Below, one piece after another: positions 12,559-62,741 of a DNA stretch of 64,000 nucleotides. Origin of the DNA: Patescibacteria group bacterium (lineage in GTDB: Bacteria; Patescibacteriota; Patescibacteriia; UBA1558; GWA2-36-10); contig JBAYIQ010000001.1 of NCBI GenBank assembly GCA_041665545.1, positions 67,495-131,494 of the forward strand. Direction: 5' to 3'. Every line of letters begins with the position of its first letter. The stretch's first letter is position 1. Below the pieces are notes generated by a model, which saw only the letters and a list, made by a program, of their open reading frames with translations, did no database searches and was not told the DNA's origin. Position numbers and translations under genes: made by a program.

Positions 12559-12837
12559 TTACAAAGAACTCTCAGCAGACTCCAGTGCTCTGGCTATCCT
12601 GCTTCTAGATACTTCTGGAATATCAGCAGACTCGATCTGGCCCTTTAAAGCACCCAAAGTGCTCTTGAGAGCTTCCCTTTCTTCAGCCGAAGGGCCACTT
12701 TCTGACACTTTTGTGGCAAAAGCATTAAGACAGTTTTCAACCTCTCCATAATCACCACCACTTAAACCTTCCATAGCCCACTTTAGTTCATCGGCGGGCT
12801 TAATACCTTCTTGTTCTTGTCTTTTTTCTAAACTCAT
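12559..12837 (-). CDS. Hypothetical acidic soluble protein (92 aa)
   Basis: ORF with elevated GC (about 45%). Third gene of a 3-gene operon of unknowns. Confidence 0.5.
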   Translation of the reverse strand: MSLEKRQEQEGIKPADELKWAMEGLSGGDYGEVENCLNAFATKVSESGPSAEEREALKSTLGALKGQIESADIPEVSRSRIARALESAESSL

Positions 12838-12868
12838 AATTTTTTTATTTATTAATTAATTATTATAT

Positions 12869-13216
12869 TTAATCCTCTTTTTTCTTGCCGAGAAATATCT
12901 GTCGTAAAGCTTGAACACGTTCTGGACCAATTTTTGCTCCCATGCTATTAAGCGCCTCCTCGTCTTCTCTGAGTAAATCTTTTGCCGCTGAAGCAAGCTT
13001 GCTTTTAAGATAGTGATGATGATCAATAAAACGCAGAAGCTGTTCGCAATATTCTAGTTCTTCAATAGTCAAGCCATCTAAGGCTGGCGGTAGCAATCTT
13101 TCTTTTAAACTTTTTGCCACCTGCCAATCCATCATGTTTTCTGCTGCTTTGATTAATTCCGTTTTTTTCTCTTCTATAATTTGTTCGGGAGTTTTTGGCG
13201 CTTCTGGTCTTTCCAT
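12869..13216 (-). CDS. Hypothetical protein (115 aa)
   Basis: ORF with elevated GC. Second gene of the operon. Confidence 0.5.
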   Translation of the reverse strand: MERPEAPKTPEQIIEEKKTELIKAAENMMDWQVAKSLKERLLPPALDGLTIEELEYCEQLLRFIDHHHYLKSKLASAAKDLLREDEEALNSMGAKIGPERVQALRQIFLGKKKED

Positions 13217-13234
13217 AATAATATTATAATATTT

Positions 13235-14257
13235 TTAATTTTTAAGAATATCGCATTTCTTTTGCAAAGCTTGGAGTGATAAATTTTTTATCATTACGTC
13301 AAGATTTTGATCGCGATTGCCCATGCGAGCAACATTGTGTTGGCTAAATAGGTAGCTGTTTTCTTTTGTAGGTGATCCTTCAGGATAATCCAAATTTTCA
13401 TTTTTACGATCGCCAGCCAGCATCAGACGGCCACGCTTGATATAGGAAATGACTATCATCAAAGTTTTGTAATCGTTATAGTCAGTCAGTAAGGCGTCCA
13501 AAGCGCGACTGACCGAGGCCTCATCACCTTCGGAGCGACGAGCTTCTTCCATACCAATGTTGACTATAAAATCCAAGAGGTCAGTTGCTCTTTTGTCAAT
13601 TTCCGCCGTTTCCTTGTCTTGGTTGTAGACGATGTCGGGTAGATTGAGTACTGGCTTGGCTAATTTATCTTCGCCTTCAGACATAAAGATCACATCAGAC
13701 ACCAAGACTTCACCGACGGCTGTTTTCTCATGAATCTGAGCTAAATAAACGCCAGCTCGACGCACTGCTTCAAAGCGGTCAATATTCATCAATGCTTCAT
13801 TGCCGATCAGGTCGGCTTTATAAATATCTTGGAGTGCCGTACCCTGAGTGTAGAGTTCAGGTTTGAGTATTTCTAGACCTTTTTCGTGCTCGCCATAATA
13901 TTCTTCCAGACCCAAGTTTCTCACATTATTCATGATTTCATTGGGACGACCACGATAGCGTTTGGGGCCGGGCATAAAAAACTTAAAAAACATTTTTGGA
14001 TGTCGACGGAGCATGTCCCAAGGATCTTTCATGACATGTTCATCGTAGTTTCTCAAAAAAATATCGCCCGCCTGGTCTACCTTGGATACAGGGCCACCCA
14101 TGTCATAAATCATGTGACCAGCTTCGTCTTGCTTGATGCGACCACCATAGACACCGACAGTGCTTTCATAGTTTTGATTGGGCAAACGAGACTCGCTCAT
14201 GACTTTATTTATGCGCTCACGCGCCACACCCAGTGGATTTTCAAAACCAAATTTCAT
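13235..14257 (-). CDS. Hypothetical soluble protein (340 aa)
   Basis: ORF with intermediate GC and no recognisable motif. First gene of the operon adjacent to the tRNA-Gln locus. Confidence 0.55.
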   Translation of the reverse strand: MKFGFENPLGVARERINKVMSESRLPNQNYESTVGVYGGRIKQDEAGHMIYDMGGPVSKVDQAGDIFLRNYDEHVMKDPWDMLRRHPKMFFKFFMPGPKRYRGRPNEIMNNVRNLGLEEYYGEHEKGLEILKPELYTQGTALQDIYKADLIGNEALMNIDRFEAVRRAGVYLAQIHEKTAVGEVLVSDVIFMSEGEDKLAKPVLNLPDIVYNQDKETAEIDKRATDLLDFIVNIGMEEARRSEGDEASVSRALDALLTDYNDYKTLMIVISYIKRGRLMLAGDRKNENLDYPEGSPTKENSYLFSQHNVARMGNRDQNLDVMIKNLSLQALQKKCDILKN

Positions 14258-14300
14258 TATAATTATAGATAATTTTTGTATATTAAATCTAAAAATGTTT

Positions 14301-14319
14301 TGGCTGCCGGATAGGGACT
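14301..14319 (-). pseudogene. tRNA-Gln 3'-end fragment (acceptor/T-arm remnant) plus duplicated downstream flank
   Basis: TGGCTGCCGGATAGGGACT matches the 3' end of the tRNA at 14600-14673. The preceding flank TATATTAAATCTAAAAATGTTT resembles that tRNA's own flank. Confidence 0.5.
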
Positions 14320-14507
14320 TCCGCGTCGCTCACCCATTAATTTTAATAAGTTGTTCGCTCCTTGTCCTGGGCAGCGCTCAAAGCTACGCCAGCTCACTTT
14401 GAGCGACGCTCGATTTATTCGCTACGCTCATATCTCGCTTCTGCCCGTTCGAGTCCCTTTCATGTATTTAATAACTGGGAAAAAATTTAAATTTATTTCA
14501 CATGACT

Positions 14508-14550
14508 TGGCTGCCGGATAGGGACTCGAACCCCAATTACCAGGGCCAGC
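14508..14550 (-). pseudogene. tRNA-Gln 3'-half fragment (about 43 nt, anticodon-stem 3' strand through CCA)
   Basis: Aligns to the full tRNA at 14600-14673 from the CCA back to GGGCCAG, then diverges. There is no 5' half. Confidence 0.55.
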
Positions 14551-14599
14551 CTGCCCCGCTCGCCGAGCACTAAACGCTTATATTAAATTAAAAAAATAT

Positions 14600-14673
14600 T
14601 GGCTGCCGGACAGGGAGTCGAACCCCGATTACTAGGGCCAGAACCTAGCGTCCTACCATTAGACGATCCGGCA
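14600..14673 (-). tRNA. tRNA-Gln (anticodon CTG)
   Basis: Reverse complement folds as a canonical cloverleaf: acceptor TGCCGGA/TCCGGCA, D-loop AATGGTA, anticodon loop TTCTGGC, T-loop TTCGACT, encoded CCA. Confidence 0.8.
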
Positions 14674-14698
14674 ATAATTAAATTAGTTTTTTAAAAAA

Positions 14699-14758
14699 CA
14701 ACGGTGACTCGCGAGGCGGGCCGGGGAACCTAGCGTCCTACCATTAGACGATCCCCGA
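14699..14758 (-). pseudogene. tRNA 5'-half fragment (first 32 nt) fused to an unrelated GC-rich tail ending in a T-run
   Basis: Reverse complement reads TCGGGGATCGTCTAATGGTAGGACGCTAGGTT. This matches the acceptor of the Gln(TTG) tRNA and the D and anticodon stems of Gln(CTG). It is followed by CCCCGGCCCGCCTCGCGAGTCACCGTTGTTTTTT. Confidence 0.5.
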
Positions 14759-14917
14759 ACAAATAAAAACTGGCTTTTTATTTTAAACTATTTACAACTT
14801 TAGACATAAATTATACAAGGTACGACTTGCCCGCCAAAACTCCGAAGGAGTGACGGCGGGTCCCCGAATGGCTATAAATAACTAAAAAATAATATAATAA
14901 TTCTGTTGCTTAGTCAA

Positions 14918-16420
14918 TCAAATCAACTCTCCCCCAAAAGTATCAATAATATCCTCAACTTCTTTTTCGTTTTTTCCTTTATACACTTGGTGATTTTGTA
15001 CAAAATCATCGTCAATAATAAAATCCAGCAACAATTTATTGTTGGTCAGTTTAAAAACTATGTCGCTTATTGTACTTTTGACTGACGATTTGTTGAGCTG
15101 TTCTAGATGAAAATTGTACTGCAAGCCAACCAAAACCTGTTTTTCATCCAAAGTCAGCGGATGGCTATTCTGCAATAAGACTGCTAATGATTTATTTATT
15201 TTTCTGGTTTCTTCAATGACCTGTTGCCAAACTTGATATTGAGTTGAGCCACCAGTATTTATAGGTGTGGTGGCTGTTTTCTTCAATTCCGGTTCGCCGA
15301 GATTCTGACTACTGGTCATTTCTGGTGATTTTTTTAATAAATATTCCACGCAAGCCAATTCCAAAGGCAGTTGTTCCACTAAAGTATCTTTTATGGCCAG
15401 CTTGGTCAAAATAATATTTATTAACCTAGATAAATCCGGTACTGAAAAATCTCGCGCATGATTTATTATTGCTTCTTTTATTTCATCAGCGGCGTCTATT
15501 TGCCAGCTACTACCCACAATATTATAAAGCATTATCTGTCGCAAATACTCCAGCAGATCAGCAATAAAAATTTTTAAATCAATGCCTTCGTTGACTAATT
15601 TATTTATCTGATTGAGTGCCGCGGCTAAATTTTGGACTTTCAAGGCCTCAATCAATTCATTGATTTCTTTCCAATTACTGCGTGGCAATACCAAAGAAGC
15701 CAATTCATCGCTTATCTTTCCTTGGCCCAATGACATTATCTGACCCAAGAGCGACTCGGCGTCTCTCATGCCACCATCCGCTCGTCTGGCAATTTCTGTC
15801 AAAATATGATCCGGCACTATTGTTTTTTCCCACTCTACTATCTCACTCAGACGACTCAATATTTCACTTTGAGTCAATTTTTTGAAATCAAATCTTTGAC
15901 AACGGGAAATTATAGTTTGCGGTACTTTGTGTATTTCGGTAGTGGCTAAAACAAAAACTATTCTAGCTGGTGGCTCTTCTAAGGTTTTCAATAAGGCATT
16001 GAAAGCCGACTTGGAAAGCATGTGCACCTCATCGATGATAAATATTTTGTAGCCAGTTTTGCTAAAAGGCGGCACTTGCGCGCTATTGATAATATTATCG
16101 CGAACATTATCAACCCCAGTATGTGAAGCGGCGTCAATCTCTATCACATCCATTGACTGATTGTTGTTTAACTGGCGGCAGACACTGCATTCATTGCAGG
16201 GCTCAGCACTTGCTTCTTTTCTGTTTAGACAATTTAAAGAACGGGCCAATAACCTTGCAATAGTGGTTTTGCCCGTGCCCCTTGGCCCAACAAACAAATA
16301 AGCATGCGCTATTTGACCAGAGATTATCTCATTTTCGAGAGTCACTTTTATAGGCCTCTGGCCAACAACTTCCTTAAATGTTTTTGGCCGATATTTTCTG
16401 TAAATTACTTCCGAATTCAT
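14918..16420 (-). CDS. dnaX: DNA polymerase III subunit gamma/tau
   Basis: GPRGTGKTT Walker A, DEVHML, zinc-finger cysteines (CNECSVC), SRC motif. Confidence 0.9.
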   Translation of the reverse strand: MNSEVIYRKYRPKTFKEVVGQRPIKVTLENEIISGQIAHAYLFVGPRGTGKTTIARLLARSLNCLNRKEASAEPCNECSVCRQLNNNQSMDVIEIDAASHTGVDNVRDNIINSAQVPPFSKTGYKIFIIDEVHMLSKSAFNALLKTLEEPPARIVFVLATTEIHKVPQTIISRCQRFDFKKLTQSEILSRLSEIVEWEKTIVPDHILTEIARRADGGMRDAESLLGQIMSLGQGKISDELASLVLPRSNWKEINELIEALKVQNLAAALNQINKLVNEGIDLKIFIADLLEYLRQIMLYNIVGSSWQIDAADEIKEAIINHARDFSVPDLSRLINIILTKLAIKDTLVEQLPLELACVEYLLKKSPEMTSSQNLGEPELKKTATTPINTGGSTQYQVWQQVIEETRKINKSLAVLLQNSHPLTLDEKQVLVGLQYNFHLEQLNKSSVKSTISDIVFKLTNNKLLLDFIIDDDFVQNHQVYKGKNEKEVEDIIDTFGGELI

Positions 16421-17241: not shown

Positions 17242-19698
17242 CTAAACAATAATTCTTTGCATGACCTCGTCATCCACAATTTTTCTATCACGGCCATACT
17301 TGAGCCTTGATAATTGTTTAATAGCTTCAGCCAGCTCCAAGTTGCCTTTTTCCGGCATAATGGGCGTAAAATTAAAAGCCGGCGGATTAGCGTTATCAAT
17401 CAACAGTTTGGCATAACAAGTATATTTGGGCATGTTCACCAAATCATAGACAGAAACTACTGGCGCCATTTGCTTAGCAATCACCTCAGCATCCTCCACT
17501 CCAATGCGATATGAAATCAAAGTCCCGACATTACCAAAAATTGCATCTTTGATTCTGGTGTCGTTGTTTTTTACTAATTGCGCAATATATTGGTGCGCTA
17601 AAATCAAATCCAATCTATATTTTCTAGCTTCCGATAAAATAATACCAATAGTCTCGGTCATAAAATTCTGGAACTCATCAATGTACAAATAAAAATCACT
17701 GCGCTGTTCTTCGGCTATATCCACTCTACTCATGGAAGCAAATAATAATTTACCAATTACTATCATACCCAAAAGATTACTATTCATTTCCCCTATTTTA
17801 CCTTTGGATAAATTAATAATAATAATTTTTTTACTATCCATGGCTTCGCGAAAATTGAAAGCACTTTTTTGCTGAGCAATTATTGGTCTGATAGTGTCGT
17901 TGGAAATAAATGGCGTCAGCTTGCTGGTGATATAGGGCACCATGTTAGCCAGTGATGCTTCACCGCCAGCTTTTTGCGCTTCTTTTTCCCAAAAATCTTT
18001 GACTAGCCGATTTTTTACTTTTGATAATTTAAATTTGCGATAGGCCTCATCGGACAGCACCCGGGGCACTTCTACTAAAGTAGCCCCCGAATCCTTGTCG
18101 TCCATAATCAAAAGCATGGCGTTGCGCATGTATTGCTCAAACATTGGTCCGCCAGTGGCTTTCAAGTCATACAACTTGTCAAAAATAGCAATCATTTCAT
18201 TGATCACGAAACCTTTTTGTTCTTCGGTGTCGTATTCCAACATATTCATGGCCAAGGGCCGTTCAATATCTGAGGGGTTGAAATATATAACATCTTCGGC
18301 TCGTGATTTTGGCACATGACTCAAGGCCTTGTCGGCTAGCTCACCATGCGGATCTATGACACACAAACCATGACCAGCCTCAATATCTTGCTTGATCAAA
18401 CTTTCCATAAACACTGATTTACCAGTACCGGTCATTCCAATCTCATACATATGGCGACGACGATCTGCTTCTTTGATACGCACTAGTGTTTCTTTGCCAC
18501 GATAAATATTTTTCCCCAAAATTACACCTTCAGTCGGCATATTTACTGGCGGTGCCGCTTTGGTAGCTTCCAGCCAATCAATGTTTGGTGTCTCGGTAGT
18601 CGGTAGTGGCAAATGAATGACACTAACCATCTCCTCGGAGTTTAATAACAAACGATAGTCCGGAGCAAAATGATGATAAATCAAATGCTCAGCAATTCGA
18701 TCTGAATGTCTAGGTACCACGGCCTGAAAACGATTACCAAATTCATAGATATTGTACTGATTATAACTATTCAAAATATCAGCTAAAATTGCTTTGGAGC
18801 GCTCATGGCTAGTGCTTGATACTACCATGCGAATATTGACTTCCAGGCCAGCTTTGGAAGTTTTCTCTTCCAAGCCCTTGGCTCGCTCCTGCTCCATGGC
18901 TGATAAGGGCTGTTTGTGATCCTCTATTTCTTTGGCTACTTCTTCTGGCTTTTTAGTTGTCTTAAAGAAACTAGCCAAAAAACCGGAGGTTTTTTCTAAG
19001 CCAGCCACAAAACCAGTGCCACCAGTTTCTTTCATGGCTTGGGAATAAGTAAAACCCTTGTGCATTTTTTGGGCTATGGTACGGCCTCTTTTGTGCCATT
19101 TTTTGGGTGCGGAGCGAAAAACATATTGAATAGCCGCTCCTTCACCGGGCACTAATTTACTCAAAGCATTAGTAATCCCTTCTTGGGGATCATTTTCAAA
19201 ACTACGGTAGGTTTTTATGGGCAAAGTATAGTCATTGGTAAATTTCAAATAGCCGGCCATTATAAATGAATTGGTCTGAAAAATATTGTAATCCGTCACC
19301 TCTTCAGCGTAGATCTTGGGGTAGACTGCCTGTAATTGACCAATAAAAAACTCCGCAAATTTTTGCGGTACTGTAGCGTAAAAATTAATCAAACCATTTT
19401 CAGAAACAATATCAAGTGAAAAAATTTCTTTCGGTTGTCCAAAAAATAATTTTTCTGCCTTTAATCCAGCCAGAGCCGAAAAAAAGTTCTCAATTTTGCC
19501 CAAGGTCTGCTCAATATATTGCTTGGATAATTCTTCTTTTTCTTCTTTAGTATATTTGGGAACTTTTATCAAAAAAACTGACAAACGCAAACTCTTGTTG
19601 GTTTTTGTCTTGTTTTTATGAATAAGGACGCTCAAAATAATAAAAGTAAATAAGGCCAACAGTCCTATTGAAATTAAACTTTCTTGGTTAAGCTCCAT
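17242..19698 (-). CDS. VirB4/TraC-like (DUF87-type) P-loop ATPase with N-terminal TM
   Basis: Walker A GMTGTGKS, HerA/VirB4-like ATPase core, 818 aa, N-terminal membrane anchor. Confidence 0.7.
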   Translation of the reverse strand: MELNQESLISIGLLALFTFIILSVLIHKNKTKTNKSLRLSVFLIKVPKYTKEEKEELSKQYIEQTLGKIENFFSALAGLKAEKLFFGQPKEIFSLDIVSENGLINFYATVPQKFAEFFIGQLQAVYPKIYAEEVTDYNIFQTNSFIMAGYLKFTNDYTLPIKTYRSFENDPQEGITNALSKLVPGEGAAIQYVFRSAPKKWHKRGRTIAQKMHKGFTYSQAMKETGGTGFVAGLEKTSGFLASFFKTTKKPEEVAKEIEDHKQPLSAMEQERAKGLEEKTSKAGLEVNIRMVVSSTSHERSKAILADILNSYNQYNIYEFGNRFQAVVPRHSDRIAEHLIYHHFAPDYRLLLNSEEMVSVIHLPLPTTETPNIDWLEATKAAPPVNMPTEGVILGKNIYRGKETLVRIKEADRRRHMYEIGMTGTGKSVFMESLIKQDIEAGHGLCVIDPHGELADKALSHVPKSRAEDVIYFNPSDIERPLAMNMLEYDTEEQKGFVINEMIAIFDKLYDLKATGGPMFEQYMRNAMLLIMDDKDSGATLVEVPRVLSDEAYRKFKLSKVKNRLVKDFWEKEAQKAGGEASLANMVPYITSKLTPFISNDTIRPIIAQQKSAFNFREAMDSKKIIIINLSKGKIGEMNSNLLGMIVIGKLLFASMSRVDIAEEQRSDFYLYIDEFQNFMTETIGIILSEARKYRLDLILAHQYIAQLVKNNDTRIKDAIFGNVGTLISYRIGVEDAEVIAKQMAPVVSVYDLVNMPKYTCYAKLLIDNANPPAFNFTPIMPEKGNLELAEAIKQLSRLKYGRDRKIVDDEVMQRIIV

Positions 19699-34563: not shown

Positions 34564-35029
34564 TGTCTAAATAACCCTGTAAGCCGAATTCTGTCGAGGA
34601 TGATCATCTATCTAGGCCCATGATTGCTCATGGGCTCAAGCGGTTTACCCGCCCCTTGATTTCTCTCAGGGCCTATTTAACCTTTCACCGAGTAGAGTTT
34701 ACCTCTTTTGCTTTGTCACCAAAGTAACGTGTCAGCTCATTATCTGACAATTTCACCCTTACCCATTTGACTCAGCCTTGCGGCTTCGCTCAGGGAGGAA
34801 TATTTTCTGTTGTACTTGTCTTGACTCTTGAGTCACCTCTCAAGCCAGTTGACGTTATCAACTACCCGCCCCGCAAGCGGAGCCATTGGTGTTCGGACTT
34901 TCCTCCCTGAACCACTCACTCCGTTCGGGTATCAGGGCCGAAGCCCTTTTACATTATTACGGCGTGAGCCGTGTACCCGAGCAAAGCGAGTGGTTCACGG
35001 CGATCATCTGGGTTATTTAGACGATTATT
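34564..35029 (-). ncRNA. rnpB: RNase P RNA, bacterial type A
   Basis: On the minus strand: GGGAGGAAAGTCCGAACAC (P4 5' strand), ACAGAAAATA, GGGTAAGGGTGAAA, ACAGAATTCGGCTTACAGGG (P4 3' strand), and a P1 helix CGTCTAAATAACCC/GGGTTATTTAGACA. Confidence 0.85.
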
Positions 35030-59733: not shown

Positions 59734-59761
59734 CTTTTCATTGACAATTTAACAAACCTTT

Positions 59762-59866
59762 GAAGCAAGGAAGCATTATCTTTATTTGGACGCTTGGATA
59801 ATGTGGAGCTAGTAGCGTAACCGGCAACAATTTTTGGTTACGCTTCCTAATGGGAAGTGTTTTTTG
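59762..59866 (+). promoter_or_regulatory. Structured RNA leader A (riboswitch-like) ending in an intrinsic terminator
   Basis: Conserved blocks GAAGCAAGGA / TTTGGACGCTTGG / GGAGCTAGTAGCGTAACCGGCA. Alternative 8-bp hairpin GCGTAACC/GGTTACGC. Terminator CTTCC..GGAAG plus TTTTTT. Confidence 0.45.
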
Positions 59867-59900: not shown

Positions 59901-60051
59901 GATGAGGCAAGGAATGATCGTCTGTATTTGGACGCTTGGTCCTCCCACTCCGCCATCTGGCGGATATGGACGGACGAGGACGATCAGGAGCTAGTAGCGT
60001 AACCGGCAATTTTTTTGGTTATTAGCTAAACACCTCATTCAGGTGTTTTTT
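59901..60051 (+). promoter_or_regulatory. Structured RNA leader B (paralog of A with an extended internal stem) ending in an intrinsic terminator
   Basis: Same three conserved blocks. 62-nt insertion forming CCGCCAUCUGGCGG and GGUCCUC/GAGGACG stems. Terminator CACCTcattcAGGTG plus TTTTTT, directly before the receiver gene RBS. Confidence 0.45.
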
Positions 60052-60083
60052 GTTACCTGGTGGCTAGCAAGGAGGAAAAGAAC

Positions 60084-60461
60084 ATGAGCACGATTTTTGT
60101 CTTGGACCAGAAGGAATCTGCCGAATCCCTGGCCATGGCACTCTGTCAGGAAGGACACGTGACTTACATAAGTTGCGACTACAAAAAGGCCTTAAGACAG
60201 ATCGCTGAACTGACCGCCGCCAAAGCAGGGCCAGATCTAGTGTTGGCTGAATTTCTGGAAACAGACGGGGCAGAACTTTGCAGGGAACTGCGGCGATACG
60301 GTCTGACCAGGAAAATCAAGGTTGTACTGATGAGTCGCGGTGGTCCGCACAGCAATATTGATTATTACCGCCGACTGGGAAAAAGCTACGGAGCAGATGA
60401 CTACTTACTCAAGTCAGACGACCTGCGAGCAATCGCTCGAAGCATCCAACACTTGATCTAG
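60084..60461 (+). CDS. Stand-alone receiver (REC) domain protein with the phospho-acceptor Asp replaced by Glu (pseudo-receiver)
   Basis: AAGGAGG RBS with an 8-nt spacer. CheY-like fold sequence: IFVLDQ, DLVLAEF (E at the phospho-site), conserved K in KVVLMS..., GADDYLLK. About 50% GC. Confidence 0.6.
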   Translation: MSTIFVLDQKESAESLAMALCQEGHVTYISCDYKKALRQIAELTAAKAGPDLVLAEFLETDGAELCRELRRYGLTRKIKVVLMSRGGPHSNIDYYRRLGKSYGADDYLLKSDDLRAIARSIQHLI

Positions 60462-60476
60462 ACAAGGAGGTGTCTC

Positions 60477-60527
60477 ATGGATCTGATCAGCGTCCTCATC
60501 CTCATCTCGGCCAAGTACGAGTGGTGA
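60477..60527 (+). CDS. 16-aa hydrophobic micro-ORF (MDLISVLILISAKYEW), translationally coupled to the receiver gene
   Basis: Strong AAGGAGG RBS 7 nt upstream, 12 nt after the receiver stop codon. Followed by hairpins and a terminator. Confidence 0.3.
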   Translation: MDLISVLILISAKYEW

Positions 60528-60596
60528 CTCCCCTCACCAAAGAAAGGTGGTGATAAAAAATTCGACAGTACAGATGATCACTGTCGATAATAACCT

Positions 60597-60640
60597 CGGG
60601 GTCAGACACACTCACTATCTGACCCCGAACAAAAAATCAT
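60597..60640 (+). terminator. Intrinsic terminator (perfect 9-bp stem CGGGGTCAG/CTGACCCCG plus A/T-rich run)
   Basis: Seen directly. Preceded by a second perfect 7-bp hairpin CGACAGT..ACTGTCG at 60563-60586. Confidence 0.55.
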
Positions 60641-60700
60641 TGATTTTCCGACTTGATTGTGCTACATTAAAAATATATAGAATATTCACAATTTAAATAA

Positions 60701-60824
60701 AGTGAGGCAATGACTGATTACTATCCATTTTGGACGCCAAATTGGTAATCAAGAGCTAGTGGCGTAACCGGCACTTTTATCAACTAAGCCACCCACCTCA
60801 CCAAACATTAATTGAGGTTTTTTT
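60701..60824 (+). promoter_or_regulatory. Structured RNA element C (third paralog of A and B) with an intrinsic terminator
   Basis: GAGGCAATGA / TTTGGACGCC / AGAGCTAGTGGCGTAACCGGCA blocks. Terminator CCTCA..TGAGG plus TTTTTTT. Confidence 0.45.
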
Positions 60825-60839
60825 ATGCCTAAATAAGCA

Positions 60840-60868
60840 TTGACAATTTAAAAAACATGGGTTATAAT
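60840..60868 (+). promoter_or_regulatory. Consensus sigma70 promoter (TTGACA-17-TATAAT) with a 230-nt AT-rich leader for the lipoprotein gene
   Basis: TTGACAatttaaaaaacatgggtTATAAT. Confidence 0.55.
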
Positions 60869-61103
60869 AACCAGTTAATTATTAATCATAAATTAGATAT
60901 TGCGCTAACCTTGAAATTTTATTTTTAGACTAGCGGAATATCTAAATAGGAAAGAACATTACAACTTGGGAAATCACACAATCACACCGACTCCACCAGT
61001 AGTTATGAAATAATCTTACCAAAACATTAAGGGAGGTGAGTAAAACTAGAATTCTCCTTCGGTTTCTGTAGATCGCCAAATCACAGATTACAGGAGGCAA
61101 GCG

Positions 61104-62174
61104 ATGAGATTCGTAAGCGTTCTGCTACTGGTTGTGGCTTCCTCGGCGCTTCTGCTGGGTGGCTGCGAACAGAGCCCCACCACTCCGGTGGAAAACCTCA
61201 GCCCCGGACAGGAGCACAATGTCTTCCTGTCTACCATGTATGCCAACTACGGCATCGAGCAGTACCACAATGTCGATACCGAACTGGCTATCAATCGTGC
61301 CAGCAAGGTGTTCGCCAAGCAGCTGAACCTGCCCGAAGCCGAAGTGCGACAGCAGATGGAGCAAGGAATCCGGGTCTTCAACGACCTGGAAGCTGCTGGG
61401 ATCATCGATTTCGACCATTTCAAGATCATCGATCCGTCGGGGTTTGCTGAATACATCAGCAACCTCGACCCCGCCACCACCCCCGAAGAACGGCGGATGG
61501 TTCGAGACTTGATCGGCGATCTTGTCGCCACTGGCGCCGACAAGTCCCGAAGCTACGACCAGGTGGTGGCCAAATGGAACCACCACTCCGTCACCCAGCG
61601 GCTCACCAGCTGCCTGGACGTACTGGCGGCCAGTGATGAGTTCTGGACGACGCCCGACGCAGACAAGAAGCAACCCTATACCGCTGGCGAGGTCCAGATG
61701 TGGGATACCGGCGGAGCTCTGGCGGGAGCTTGGCTCGGTGGTCCCCTCGGAAGCCTGCTCGTAGGAGGGCTCACCTCTTATCTGGCAGCCGAATACTGCT
61801 CGCTCTGCCCGCCGGACGAACCGCCGCCGCCACCGCCGCCCCCGCCGCCGCCACCGCCGTCACCGAACGGTTATGATCCGCCGCCCGTCGTCCTGTCCGG
61901 TTTCATCTCTTTTCCTCCTCGCCACCCCGCTGGCTGGGCGGTGGTGGTCATGCTGATCGTCTGTGTCACGGCCTGGCTGATATTGCACAAGCGATATCAG
62001 CTTGGTAAGTTCTGGGGTTTGGGCATGATCATGCTGATCGGCTCCTTGTCCCAGATCGCCGCCAGCAGCATCAGCCACACCAACAACAGCATGTCGATCT
62101 TGCTGTTGGTGATTTCCAGCGTGATCGGAATCTGGCTCATTCGTCGCAACACCCAACGGCGAGTGTTGAACTAG
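61104..62174 (+). CDS. GC-rich lipoprotein with a poly-proline linker and C-terminal TM helices
   Basis: AGGAGG RBS. Signal peptide with lipobox LLGGC. PPDEPPPPPPPPPPPPPSP tract. Two or three C-terminal hydrophobic helices. About 58% GC. Confidence 0.6.
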   Translation: MRFVSVLLLVVASSALLLGGCEQSPTTPVENLSPGQEHNVFLSTMYANYGIEQYHNVDTELAINRASKVFAKQLNLPEAEVRQQMEQGIRVFNDLEAAGIIDFDHFKIIDPSGFAEYISNLDPATTPEERRMVRDLIGDLVATGADKSRSYDQVVAKWNHHSVTQRLTSCLDVLAASDEFWTTPDADKKQPYTAGEVQMWDTGGALAGAWLGGPLGSLLVGGLTSYLAAEYCSLCPPDEPPPPPPPPPPPPPSPNGYDPPPVVLSGFISFPPRHPAGWAVVVMLIVCVTAWLILHKRYQLGKFWGLGMIMLIGSLSQIAASSISHTNNSMSILLLVISSVIGIWLIRRNTQRRVLN

Positions 62175-62199
62175 ACACCTCAAACAGAGACCACGCATA

Positions 62200-62247
62200 G
62201 GACCCCGCATCTGTTGCATTCACAATGCACTGCGGGGTCCTCTTTTT
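62200..62247 (+). terminator. Intrinsic terminator (9-bp stem GGACCCCGC/GCGGGGTCC plus TCTTTTT)
   Basis: Seen directly. Confidence 0.65.
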
Positions 62248-62410
62248 ATTGACTAAATGCTAAATATATACTATAATTTTTTTGTTTTTTATATTTATTC
62301 GGGGACCCGTCCGCCTCGGCTACGCCGCAGGCGTGCCGGGCGAGTCTACTATTCATAAGGACATAGTCATATATAAAACAAGTAGTATAATTTACATTAT
62401 TTTTAAACAT

Positions 62411-62484
62411 TCGGGGATCGTCTAATGGTAGGACAGCGGCCTTTGAAGCCGTGAATTGGGGTTCGAATCCCTGTCCCCGAGCCA
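62411..62484 (+). tRNA. tRNA-Gln (anticodon TTG)
   Basis: Cloverleaf: acceptor TCGGGGA/TCCCCGA, D-loop AATGGTA, anticodon loop CTTTGAA, T-loop TTCGAAT, CCA encoded. Confidence 0.8.
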
Positions 62485-62741
62485 CTCGACTCGTCGTCGT
62501 TTCACTCCGCCTCGCTCGTGATTTCAGCTCCTCACTTCGTTCGTTGTTTCAACCCTTCATATAAAAAAGACGAGGTGAGTGTCCCGAGCGTAGTCGAGGG
62601 ACAAAACAATTTTTTATGAAGTATACCTAAGATGCTGCGCAATAGCGCAGCGCCCCGAGCCAGCCTTCGCCAAGGCTACGGCTGGCTTACAGCCATAAAA
62701 TATACCACAAAATTTAAAAATTAATTAAAAAATAAAATTAT

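Follow-up and report, generated by a model that had tools for sequence, protein, structure and literature searches.

A repeatedly broken and apparently replaced tRNA-Gln gene in a Patescibacteria (CPR) bacterium, nested among hairpin-capped pieces of its own older copies

How does a single working glutamine tRNA gene come to lie among several fragments of tRNA genes within one intergenic spacer of a very compact bacterial genome? The spacer, 660 nt between dnaX and the next gene, lies in the 64,000-nt stretch of DNA analysed here (the window: positions 67,495 to 131,494, forward strand, of contig JBAYIQ010000001.1, assembly GCA_041665545.1, a Patescibacteria group bacterium). An initial annotation, made from the sequence alone, described an intact tRNA-Gln(CTG) with two 3' fragments and one 5' half around it, and interpreted these as the scars of a repeatedly used integration or duplication hotspot.

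We first asked whether the described arrangement exists, and found that it does. ARAGORN identified two tRNAs in the window, Gln(CTG) at 14600-14673 on the minus strand and Gln(TTG) at 62411-62484 on the plus strand. The Rfam tRNA model agreed and, as a check on whether a tRNA array had been misread, revealed no other tRNA in 14200-14950 even at E<=10; ARAGORN with introns allowed added nothing at its default threshold. BLASTN of the tRNA against the whole window retrieved the pieces (positions within the tRNA are sequence indices, with the anticodon at 33-35). The 3' half, 14507-14549, is identical at 39 of 43 positions to tRNA positions 33-74 plus the flanking A (E=1e-11). In the 5' half, 14726-14758, positions 5-33 match the Gln(CTG) tRNA at 29 of 29 (E=4e-11), while positions 1-24 plus the preceding T match Gln(TTG) at 25 of 25. 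The 3' end piece, 14300-14319, is identical at 20 of 20 to the 3' half copy (E=3e-5) but matches the intact tRNA at only 16 of 17 (E=0.02), and its flank resembles the flank of the intact tRNA (39 nt, 87%). Two details required correction: the 3' half ends at 14549 rather than 14550, and the 5' and 3' halves both stop at the same base, the first anticodon nucleotide. Three features had been overlooked: an inverted 12-nt copy of the T-arm, a second, 8-nt copy of the tRNA 5' end (TTCGGGGA), and imperfect inverted repeats flanking the intact tRNA (13 of 5000 shuffles reach the observed score). The spacer is identical in four independent assemblies, so it is not an assembly artefact.

To determine how the pieces arose we sought the same locus in relatives. 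Homologues of the neighbouring 340-aa gene, at most 73% identical, are not next to tRNAs, whereas homologues of DnaX led to informative close relatives, about 91% identical in the flanking genes (individual loci of the comparison set are denoted below by L numbers). These show every block of the spacer as a discrete indel, and six close relatives display at least five different structural states of this one tRNA locus. Relatives L137, L139 and L144 carry one simple tRNA whose first 33 nt equal the 5' half of the window. L141 carries positions 1-12 of that gene, a 40-nt hairpin, positions 12-33, the GC-rich tail designated C below, a second intact tRNA, of which the window's 3' half forms part, and the 3' module. 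L147 and L145 differ from each other by a clean 40-nt hairpin between G10 and T11. With these comparisons the parts of the locus, and of the second tRNA-Gln locus of the window, can be described as follows.

14889 to 14917, minus strand: promoter-like site TTGACT-17-TATTAT (consensus scan) just after the dnaX stop codon; conserved in L137 and L141, and in L137 directly in front of the simple tRNA.
14861 to 14868, minus strand: left copy of TTCGGGGA, the T before the tRNA plus tRNA positions 1-7, the original 5' end of the resident tRNA-Gln(CTG) gene; the alignment to L137 and L141 runs from dnaX to 14861 and stops there, whereas in L137 the tRNA continues without a break.
14760 to 14860, minus strand: insert A, 101 nt, at tRNA position 7/8 between two copies of TTCGGGGA, with a GC hairpin at 14830-14860 (CCCGCC..UUCG..GGCGGG), then CAAGT, then a promoter-like TTGGCG-16-TATAAT at 14810-14837; absent from L137, L139, L141 and L144, present at 89% identity over 57 nt in L143, with a homologue at 62306-62349.
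14726 to 14759, minus strand: 5' half, the T before the tRNA plus positions 1-33 of the resident gene (acceptor strand TCGGGGA), ending at the first anticodon base; 33 of 33 identical to the intact tRNA of L137, L139 and L144.
14674 to 14725, minus strand: tail C, a GC-rich element (14702-14725), a T-run (14693-14701) and an AT spacer, abutting the break in the anticodon loop; L141 has the same element with 31 more nt, and it is the imperfect inverted repeat of 14550-14599 noted above.
14600 to 14673, minus strand: the only intact tRNA-Gln(CTG) (acceptor strand TGCCGGA; Rfam, 58.4 bits), a mosaic of two gene types, 68 of 74 identical to both the L137 type and the L141 type.
14550 to 14599, minus strand: AT-rich trailer plus a GC leader (14550-14570), the leader being an inverted copy of tail C that abuts the start of the 3' half; this stretch is absent from L141, where the 3' half belongs to an intact gene.
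14507 to 14549, minus strand: 3' half, positions 33-74 plus one flanking A, from an older copy of the gene; 42 of 42 identical to the 3' part of the intact tRNA of L141.
14447 to 14458, plus strand: inverted 12-mer of the T-arm (GTTCGAGTCCCT on the plus strand), the left boundary of the 3' module; the same design was found by script downstream of seven other tRNA-Gln genes (L016, L032 twice, L039, L060, L086, L087, L114) and by eye in L035.
14320 to 14446, minus strand: GC-rich block with repeated GAGCG motifs between the inverted T-arm piece and the 3' end piece; 91% identical to L141, with a predicted fold that is not exceptional (z=-1.9 on one strand, -1.1 on the other), no Rfam match and no tandem repeat.
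14300 to 14319, minus strand: 3' end piece, the T-loop through CCA plus one A, the outermost remnant; 19 of 19 identical to the 3' end of the L141 tRNA.
14279 to 14299, minus strand: flank resembling the trailer of the intact tRNA, included in the 39-nt alignment at 87% identity.
62297 to 62349, plus strand: upstream side of the second locus, ATTCGGGGA (62297-62305) plus GC hairpin B (62306-62344), followed about 60 nt later by the same 9-mer at the start of tRNA-Gln(TTG); the direct repeats cover the promoter plus the 9-mer.
62411 to 62484, plus strand: intact tRNA-Gln(TTG).
62485 to 62690, plus strand: downstream side of the second locus, a GC-rich block, a repeat of the last 10 nt of the tRNA (CCCCGAGCCA, 62653-62662) and a GC hairpin (62658-62687); the motif GCGCAATAGCGCAGCG followed by the 10-mer also occurs after the tRNA-Gln(CTG) of L143, and L145 has a diverged version.

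The locus is therefore a DNA-level hotspot of insertion and partial duplication, and the interpretation offered initially is supported in part. Repeated use of the hotspot is borne out by the relatives, and the copies are DNA-level duplications that include non-tRNA flank. Three further proposals are not supported. The first was that the copies are attL/attR scars of tyrosine-integrase elements, considered below. The second was that the 5' half is a chimera made by recombination between the two Gln loci; it is simply the remnant of the resident gene, which is intact in the nearest relatives, and the mosaic is instead the intact tRNA, which has the body of that gene and acceptor pairs 2-4 of the L141 type. 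The third was that the GC-rich blocks of the two loci resemble each other; while the upstream hairpin elements A and B are homologous (4 of 2000 shuffles), the block at 14320-14446 does not align with 62485-62652, only the architecture being shared, and the similarity of tail C to hairpins A and B is not significant.

We next asked whether the arrangement is peculiar to this genome. Partial copies lie within 600 nt of 23 of 63 CPR tRNA-Gln genes, against 5 of 53 non-CPR genes (p=9e-4) and 2 of 120 phage tRNA-Gln genes (p=2e-10), and a tRNA-Ile gene in L054 has the same nested design. Small ORFs of about 80 aa with a GIY-YIG nuclease domain (PF01541) are linked to the tRNA in CPR loci: 10 of 12 lie within 250 nt of the tRNA-Gln (binomial 2e-7), and in L025, L059, L017 and L096 the ORF sits between the partial copy and the intact tRNA. 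The hairpin of L141 is about 88% identical to the hairpin that precedes the GIY-YIG ORF of L059, at the same tRNA position 12/13 (0 of 5000 shuffles). An origin in phages found no support, as the 3' piece, the A hairpin and the L141 hairpin are all absent from IMG/VR. A retro-element or primer-binding-site origin of the 3' pieces was likewise rejected, since in genomes whose tRNA genes lack CCA, such as L032, the pieces lack it too, and flanks are duplicated together with the tRNA pieces.

What the comparisons establish directly is that one working tRNA-Gln(CTG) is nested inside the debris of earlier copies of the same gene; that the resident gene, intact in L137, L139 and L144, is broken at position 7/8 by the 101-nt insert and again at the first anticodon base; that a second gene type, intact in L141, is broken at the same anticodon base by a 92-nt segment; that every breakpoint is capped by a short GC-rich, hairpin-forming element; and that the working tRNA is a mosaic of the two types. 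The mechanism is our inference. We reason that the tRNA-Gln gene is hit again and again at a few fixed positions (the D region, the anticodon loop and the T loop) and that, because the gene is essential, only events that also install an intact copy survive, that copy coming from a neighbouring partial copy or from incoming DNA, with the highly conserved tRNA serving as the homology arm. The result would be the new gene nested between the halves of the old one, although the history of the mosaic tRNA can be reconstructed only in part. In this view the 31-40-nt GC hairpins are small insertion modules that travel with these events, no integrase is involved, and the driver is a nuclease-based, homing-like cassette of which the window is a relic that has lost the nuclease gene. 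We place the probability of this reading at about one half; site-specific cleavage of tRNA-Gln DNA, in particular of the allele lacking a cassette, is inferred by analogy alone.

The analogy is with phage T4 SegB, a free-standing GIY-YIG homing endonuclease whose gene lies inside a tRNA cluster, which recognises the T-loop motif GGTTCRANTCC in tRNA genes and cuts them (PMC2330249), drives co-inheritance of the tRNA region and can also drive its segmental amplification (PMC13096335). Presence or absence of blocks between close relatives with a conserved target, as expected of such a cassette, is observed for the ORF-less A insert, hairpins and 92-nt segment. Several observations nevertheless weigh against this reading. 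No GIY-YIG ORF was found in the window, by jackhmmer or by six-frame HMM search, nor a recognisable remnant in its two tRNA-Gln spacers, nor any in the spacers of the six close relatives. The CPR proteins comprise the catalytic domain only, with no DNA-binding domain. An intact tRNA is regenerated next to the ORF, so a target lying wholly inside the tRNA would not be destroyed by the insertion. The hairpin insertions have no target duplication and no terminal inverted repeats, and within the window their motifs occur only at the two tRNA-Gln loci, so they are not a dispersed repeat family. SegB homing, moreover, leaves no nested partial copies or GC hairpins, and the present setting is a chromosome of a cellular organism rather than a phage.

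A bolder form of this reading is not excluded but is less likely than not: Patescibacteria may harbour a previously undescribed class of selfish cassette that invades an essential tRNA gene (Gln, possibly others such as Ile) at fixed positions, carries its own replacement tRNA distinguished by compensatory flips in the acceptor stem, is bounded by GC hairpins, and is driven by a minimal GIY-YIG nuclease that may be structure-specific or may be targeted by the adjacent tRNA-like piece. The window would then be a multi-generation fossil record of such invasions.

Of the alternatives, the one that survives best, though still doubtful, invokes no dedicated element or nuclease: a highly transcribed, hairpin-rich tRNA gene would stall replication, slippage, template switching and fold-back repair would create partial direct and inverted duplications with GC hairpins as templated filler, and natural transformation and recombination through the conserved tRNA would spread the variants. 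Inverted T-arm pieces and inverted flanks are typical of such repair, and the mosaic tRNA, the hairpin insertions without target duplication and the absence of a mobile-element gene among the window ORFs scanned are in keeping with it. However, homologous hairpins occur at the same tRNA position in unrelated lineages (L141, L059, L097), the A insert carries its own promoter-like site and a clean 8-nt duplication, phage tRNA-Gln genes with the same D-arm 18-mer almost never show partial copies (the 2 of 120 above), and the strong link with GIY-YIG genes is left unexplained.

Two further alternatives appear unlikely. In the first, genomic islands integrated into the anticodon-loop and T-loop sites, and later deletion of their interiors left only the duplicated 3' segments. 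The 3' half and the 3' end piece do start in the anticodon loop and the T loop, the two usual crossover zones of tRNA-targeting integrases, and an intact tRNA is kept at one end of such direct repeats, the tRNA gene being a repeatedly used site in both cases; partial tRNA copies as att scars have been reviewed (bioRxiv 10.1101/2022.07.05.498093). A variable cassette of three genes (12559-14257), absent in L139 and L144, also lies next to the locus, but outside the repeats rather than between them. No integrase, recombinase or transposase domain was found in 34 window ORFs scanned against Pfam (30 mid-size ORFs and four next to the locus, a set that omits some ORFs longer than 470 aa or shorter than 150 aa), nor was an integrase found in CPR locus L020 between the tRNA and a distant fragment. 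The DNA between copies is only 50-230 nt (gaps of 50, 52 and 187 nt in the window, where the bounded DNA has no ORF). Half of the copies are 5' pieces lying upstream, which integrase sites at the 3' end of tRNAs do not produce, and the 5' pieces upstream (positions 1-7, 1-12, 1-18, 1-33), the hairpins inserted inside pieces and the inverted T-arm pieces are not produced by att recombination; the nesting of the intact gene inside a split copy also sets the locus apart. A true integrase case in the same data set, L041, shows that integrase islands do use tRNA-Gln, but looks quite different: a 44-nt repeat 5.5 kb away with an integrase gene.

In the second, the GC hairpins would be REP-, PATE- or MITE-like non-autonomous elements moved by a transposase encoded elsewhere (for example a Y1 or RAYT type), seen only in redundant tRNA copies because insertions elsewhere in such a compact genome are lethal. 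The discrete 40-nt hairpins are indeed present or absent among close relatives, have a constant polarity, C-rich arm first, and several end in GGGC[A/G]AG; the A insert has its 8-nt TTCGGGGA duplication, while the 40-nt hairpin in L145 has none. Against this, the A insert has no terminal inverted repeats, hairpin motifs were not found elsewhere in the window, the ORF scans detected no transposase domain, and hairpins differ greatly in sequence between lineages, only some pairs being significantly similar. Mobile GC clusters of yeast mitochondrial DNA and bacterial REP/PATE hairpins are also short, GC-rich, palindromic, noncoding inserts in an AT-rich genome that are present or absent between close strains, but the hairpins here are confined to tRNA-Gln loci, sit at defined tRNA positions and are coupled to partial gene duplication, with no mobilising enzyme identified.

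That the pieces function as RNA, whether as a split or intron-containing tRNA or as tRNA-half or leader RNAs that regulate tRNA maturation, is very unlikely: although the 5' half keeps a promoter-like site and ends in a T-run, the GC tail and leader can pair and would bring the halves together, and L060 and L080 share a hairpin with two compensatory changes, the acceptor strands of the halves mismatch at 3 of 7 pairs (TCGGGGA against TCCGGCA), the intron-permitting ARAGORN search found nothing at its default threshold, close relatives manage with a simple gene, and bacteria have no known bulge-helix-bulge splicing endonuclease.

The split and multi-intron tRNA genes of Archaea (Nanoarchaeum, Thermoproteales) share the 5' half with a GC-rich tail complementary to a GC-rich leader before a 3' half, and insertions in the D, anticodon and T loops; here, however, the halves do not form an acceptor stem, an intact paralogue lies between them, relatives have the uninterrupted gene, and the organism is a bacterium by its class A RNase P RNA. 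Group I introns interrupt tRNA genes in the anticodon loop in the same phylum (PMC13011429), but that study reports Asn and Asp tRNAs interrupted at position 35/36 and its text does not mention Gln or gene fragments; the present inserts are 31-180 nt, and apart from the intact tRNA and three chance-level partial matches far below gathering score, Rfam revealed nothing in 14200-14950 at E<=10, with no intron model matching there or in the related loci.

tRNA genes are the classic landing pads for mobile DNA, but the known mechanism uses integrases and kilobase-sized islands; here an essential tRNA gene is broken again and again at defined positions and, by our inference, rescued each time by a nested replacement copy, with only tiny GC hairpins left behind and, in other lineages, a minimal GIY-YIG nuclease gene. 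This points to an undescribed way of invading tRNA genes without an integrase. If it is a homing-like system, it would explain the oversized spacers around CPR tRNA-Gln genes, give a function to the very abundant small GIY-YIG genes of CPR genomes, and provide a natural example of a gene drive that replaces an essential RNA gene. In practice, the partial copies can mislead tRNA annotation and island-finding tools that read tRNA fragments as att sites. A metagenome scan with the anticodon-arm 24-mer returned only unrelated organisms, whose CPR-like, low-GC loci are clean except in L132, where a GC-rich block follows the tRNA.

The window is low in GC (about 38%) and carries a bacterial class A RNase P RNA (34564-34951, minus strand; 173.7 bits) within a 577-nt spacer; its proteins are named in NCBI as 'Patescibacteria group bacterium'. 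The locus of interest occupies a 660-nt spacer, whereas nearly all other spacers in the window are shorter than 250 nt; the only others of comparable length hold the RNase P RNA, a riboswitch and the second tRNA, along with one further 642-nt spacer (60462-61103). The 660-nt spacer is identical in four independent assemblies, and is therefore not an artefact. To establish which tRNA genes and partial copies are present, we combined ARAGORN and Rfam predictions with BLASTN comparisons. The features concerned are as follows:

14918-16420, minus strand: dnaX, on one side of the spacer
14258-14917: the 660-nt spacer
13235-14257: a 340-aa gene of unknown function, on the other side of the spacer
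14600-14673, minus strand: intact tRNA-Gln(CTG)
14507-14549: a 3' half of the tRNA (39 of 43 identical, E=1e-11)
14726-14758: a 5' half (29 of 29 to the CTG tRNA; 25 of 25 to the TTG tRNA, including one upstream base)
14300-14319: a 3' end piece, 20 of 20 identical to the 3' half copy rather than to the intact gene
14447-14458: an inverted 12-mer of the T-arm
14861-14868: a second TTCGGGGA
62411-62484, plus strand: intact tRNA-Gln(TTG)

ARAGORN and Rfam find exactly two tRNAs in the window. Because additional intact tRNAs would have contradicted the initial annotation, which described a single intact gene surrounded by three tRNA-derived fragments, we also performed a permissive Rfam scan of 14200-14950 and an ARAGORN search with introns allowed at its default threshold; neither revealed a further tRNA, and the arrangement originally observed is confirmed. 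The two halves stop at the same nucleotide, the first anticodon base. The inverted T-arm 12-mer and the second TTCGGGGA are additional to the fragments first described, as are imperfect inverted repeats flanking the intact tRNA, for which 13 of 5000 shuffles reached the observed score.

To determine how this arrangement arose, we sought related taxa with a comparable locus. Homologues of the 340-aa gene were too distant and not syntenic, but homologues of DnaX yielded a graded series of relatives whose contigs were retrieved and compared (denoted here by locus numbers from L137 to L147). Flanking genes are about 91% identical in DNA for L137, L139 and L141, and about 79-81% for L143, while L145 and L147 are 81% identical in DnaX protein. 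In L137 (DnaX 96%), dnaX is followed after about 50 nt by a simple tRNA-Gln(CTG), TCGGGGATCG...CCCCGAGCCA. The window aligns with this sequence up to 14861, which means that TTCGGGGA at 14861-14868 is the original 5' end of this gene; the next 101 nt of the window (14760-14860) are absent from L137, after which TTCGGGGA recurs at 14752-14759. This segment, termed the A insert, is therefore an insertion at tRNA position 7/8 bounded by an 8-nt direct repeat, and holds a strong GC hairpin and a promoter-like TTGGCG-16-TATAAT that points at the tRNA. L139 and L144 (94-97%) have the same simple tRNA with no fragments at all, lying between a His_Phos gene and the PPIase gene.

Other relatives display other states. 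In L141 and L142 (94%), the resident gene is present as positions 1-12, a 40-nt GC hairpin, and then positions 12-33; next comes a GC tail, corresponding to the tail in the window plus 31 nt, then a second intact tRNA-Gln(CTG) with the acceptor strand TGCCGGA, followed by the same spacer, inverted T-arm piece, GC block and 3' end piece as in the window (91% identity over 276 nt). L147 (81%) has positions 1-18, a 31-nt hairpin, a spacer and an intact tRNA, and L145 (81%) is identical to L147 in this stretch except for one clean 40-nt GC hairpin inserted between G10 and T11, with no target duplication. L143 (83%) has the A-type hairpin (89% identical to that of the window) behind a copy of the first bases of the tRNA, and downstream it has a GC block followed by a repeat of the last 10 nt of the tRNA, an arrangement also found at the Gln(TTG) locus of the window.

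Sequence identities settle the origin of the pieces in the window. The 5' half is 33 of 33 identical to the intact tRNA of L137, L139 and L144, whereas the 3' half is 42 of 42, and the 3' end piece 19 of 19, identical to the intact tRNA of L141. The working tRNA of the window is 68 of 74 identical to both types, having the body of the first type and base pairs 2-4 of the acceptor stem flipped to the second type. The 5' half that the initial annotation regarded as a chimera is therefore the old resident gene, and the mosaic is the intact gene. Relative to L141, the window has an extra 92-nt segment (about 14550-14641, comprising tRNA 3' part, trailer and GC leader) sitting exactly at the first anticodon base.

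The design around tRNA-Gln(TTG) is the same. Upstream, the promoter plus ATTCGGGGA is duplicated at a spacing of about 112 nt, and a GC hairpin follows the first copy; that hairpin region is homologous to the A insert (4 of 2000 shuffles). Downstream there is a GC block, and the last 10 nt of the tRNA are repeated at 62653-62662. The large GC blocks of the two loci do not align with each other.

To assess the generality of this pattern, we scanned species-representative genomes with an 18-mer from the D arm, which gave 120 loci (numbered below L121 in what follows), with phyla assigned from the titles of the records. Partial copies within 600 nt (BLAST E<0.01) occur at 23 of 63 tRNA-Gln genes from Patescibacteria (CPR), 5 of 53 from other phyla (Fisher p=9e-4) and 2 of 120 phage-borne tRNA-Gln genes carrying the same 18-mer (p=2e-10). 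Two modules recur: (i) upstream, a direct copy of the tRNA 5' end, sometimes together with its promoter, which is interrupted by, or ends in, a GC hairpin at position 7/8, 10/11, 12/13, 14/15, 18/19 or 20/21, and (ii) downstream, an inverted T-arm piece, a 100-130-nt GC block and a direct copy of the tRNA from the T loop to the 3' end. Two of the affected loci, L025 and L096, lie on complete chromosomes. Relatives that share the same anticodon arm can nonetheless have perfectly clean loci.

The phenomenon is not restricted to tRNA-Gln. At 4163-4359 of L054, tRNA-Ile(GAT) of a Staskawiczbacterium shows the same nested layout, in which a 5' half is followed by the intact gene, flanked by 15-nt inverted repeats that extend the acceptor stem, and then by a 3' half. 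In a Saccharibacterium and a Paceibacterota (about 70-35 nt upstream of the intact tRNA-Gln in L060, 2452-2523, plus strand, and L080, 4430-4501, minus strand), the upstream partial tRNA copy continues into a long hairpin, in which two base pairs are changed compensatorily between the two genomes and the loop ACTGCTT, containing CTG, is conserved, suggesting selection on the structure. Four bins labelled Gammaproteobacteria or Pacearchaeota also bear these features, L016 and L114 carrying CPR-style downstream tRNA-Gln modules and L029 and L030 carrying upstream 5'-piece copies; these contigs may be mis-binned. Just outside the 5' boundary of the Rfam match to the RNase P RNA of the window lies CCCGAACGGAGTGAG, a motif that also occurs in GC blocks next to tRNA-Gln in loci L032 and L025, although this match is probably coincidental.

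Twelve small ORFs in ten CPR loci belong to one family, and all six that were scanned match PF01541, the GIY-YIG catalytic domain. Ten of the twelve lie within 250 nt of the tRNA-Gln (binomial 2e-7). In L025 and L059 the order is flank plus tRNA 1-12, GC hairpin, tRNA 12/13-20, GIY-YIG ORF, and flank plus intact tRNA, whereas in L017 and L096 the ORF and the intact tRNA lie together inside a split copy. L025, a complete Saccharibacteria chromosome, has two GIY-YIG ORFs (1938-2177 and 2420-2680), one on each side of its tRNA-Gln(TTG). The hairpin of L059 is about 88% identical to that of L141 (33 of 37; 0 of 5000 shuffles) and sits at the same tRNA position. None of these ORFs occurs in the window, in its two spacers in any reading frame, or in the 120 phage loci. 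A precedent for such an association is T4 SegB, a GIY-YIG endonuclease encoded inside a tRNA cluster, which recognises the T-loop motif GGTTCRANTCC and cuts tRNA genes (PMC2330249), and which can also promote segmental amplification (PMC13096335).

These comparisons show a DNA-level hotspot with fixed breakpoints, GC hairpin caps, discrete indels between close relatives and a mosaic survivor gene. The process that generated it is a matter of inference: we reason that the tRNA-Gln gene is broken or invaded repeatedly, and that only events installing an intact copy survive, leaving the new gene nested in the old one, with the conserved tRNA supplying the homology for copying from neighbouring pieces or from incoming DNA. 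Because of the GIY-YIG association and the shared hairpin, we favour a nuclease-driven, homing-like cassette, with the window representing a relic that has lost the ORF. We assign this reading a probability of about 0.5. Points against it are that no nuclease gene occurs in the locus of this lineage, that the CPR proteins lack a DNA-binding domain, and that an intact target is regenerated beside the ORF. The interpretation offered in the initial annotation is thus supported only in part: the proposal of a hotspot is right, but those of integrase action and of recombination between the two Gln loci are not supported.

Among alternative explanations, spontaneous template-switch or fold-back repair at a structured gene survives best, though we consider it unlikely. 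REP/PATE-like hairpin elements moved by an enzyme encoded elsewhere appear doubtful, and decayed integrase islands equally so: the locus resembles att scars in having 3' repeats, but no integrase was found among the window ORFs scanned and the DNA between the repeats falls short of an island in size, whereas L041, a tRNA-Gln locus serving as a positive control for integrase-mediated insertion, satisfies both criteria. An RNA-level function is very improbable. The locus resembles archaeal split tRNAs in having GC tails and leaders, but the halves cannot form an acceptor stem; nor is it the group I intron situation reported for Patescibacteria tRNAs (PMC13011429), because no intron model matches. 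Full-text literature searches found no description of nested tRNA-Gln copies or of tRNA-linked GIY-YIG genes in Patescibacteria. While fragments of tRNA genes as att scars and a tRNA-cutting GIY-YIG endonuclease are already known, the locus is a clear example of what appears to be an undescribed, CPR-wide way of invading and replacing tRNA-Gln genes.

The surroundings of both tRNA loci show further features. Near the second, a c-di-GMP-II riboswitch (59752-59835, plus strand; 67.7 bits) lies upstream of a 125-aa ORF (60084-60461), and within 60000-62200 the GC content jumps locally to 0.51; the ORF at 61104-62174 (356 aa, no Pfam match) contains a long run of GCC/GCG-rich codons (about 61794-61955) and may be foreign DNA or a low-complexity surface protein. 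Near the first, a cassette of three genes of unknown function (12559-14257; 340, 115 and 92 aa; no Pfam match) lies between the field of tRNA scars and the PPIase gene. This cassette is absent from the close relatives L139 and L144, while L141 has a variant of it, with the region of the 340-aa gene annotated as 49- and 223-aa ORFs and with an extra zeta-toxin-like kinase gene. The whole dnaX-PPIase interval is hypervariable. By contrast, a gene 2.3 kb from the tRNA (17242-19698, minus strand), encoding an 818-aa protein that resembles a VirD4/TraG type IV secretion coupling protein (DUF8128, DUF87, TrwB_AAD_bind), is conserved in all close relatives, and is thus part of the core genome and not an integrated conjugative element.
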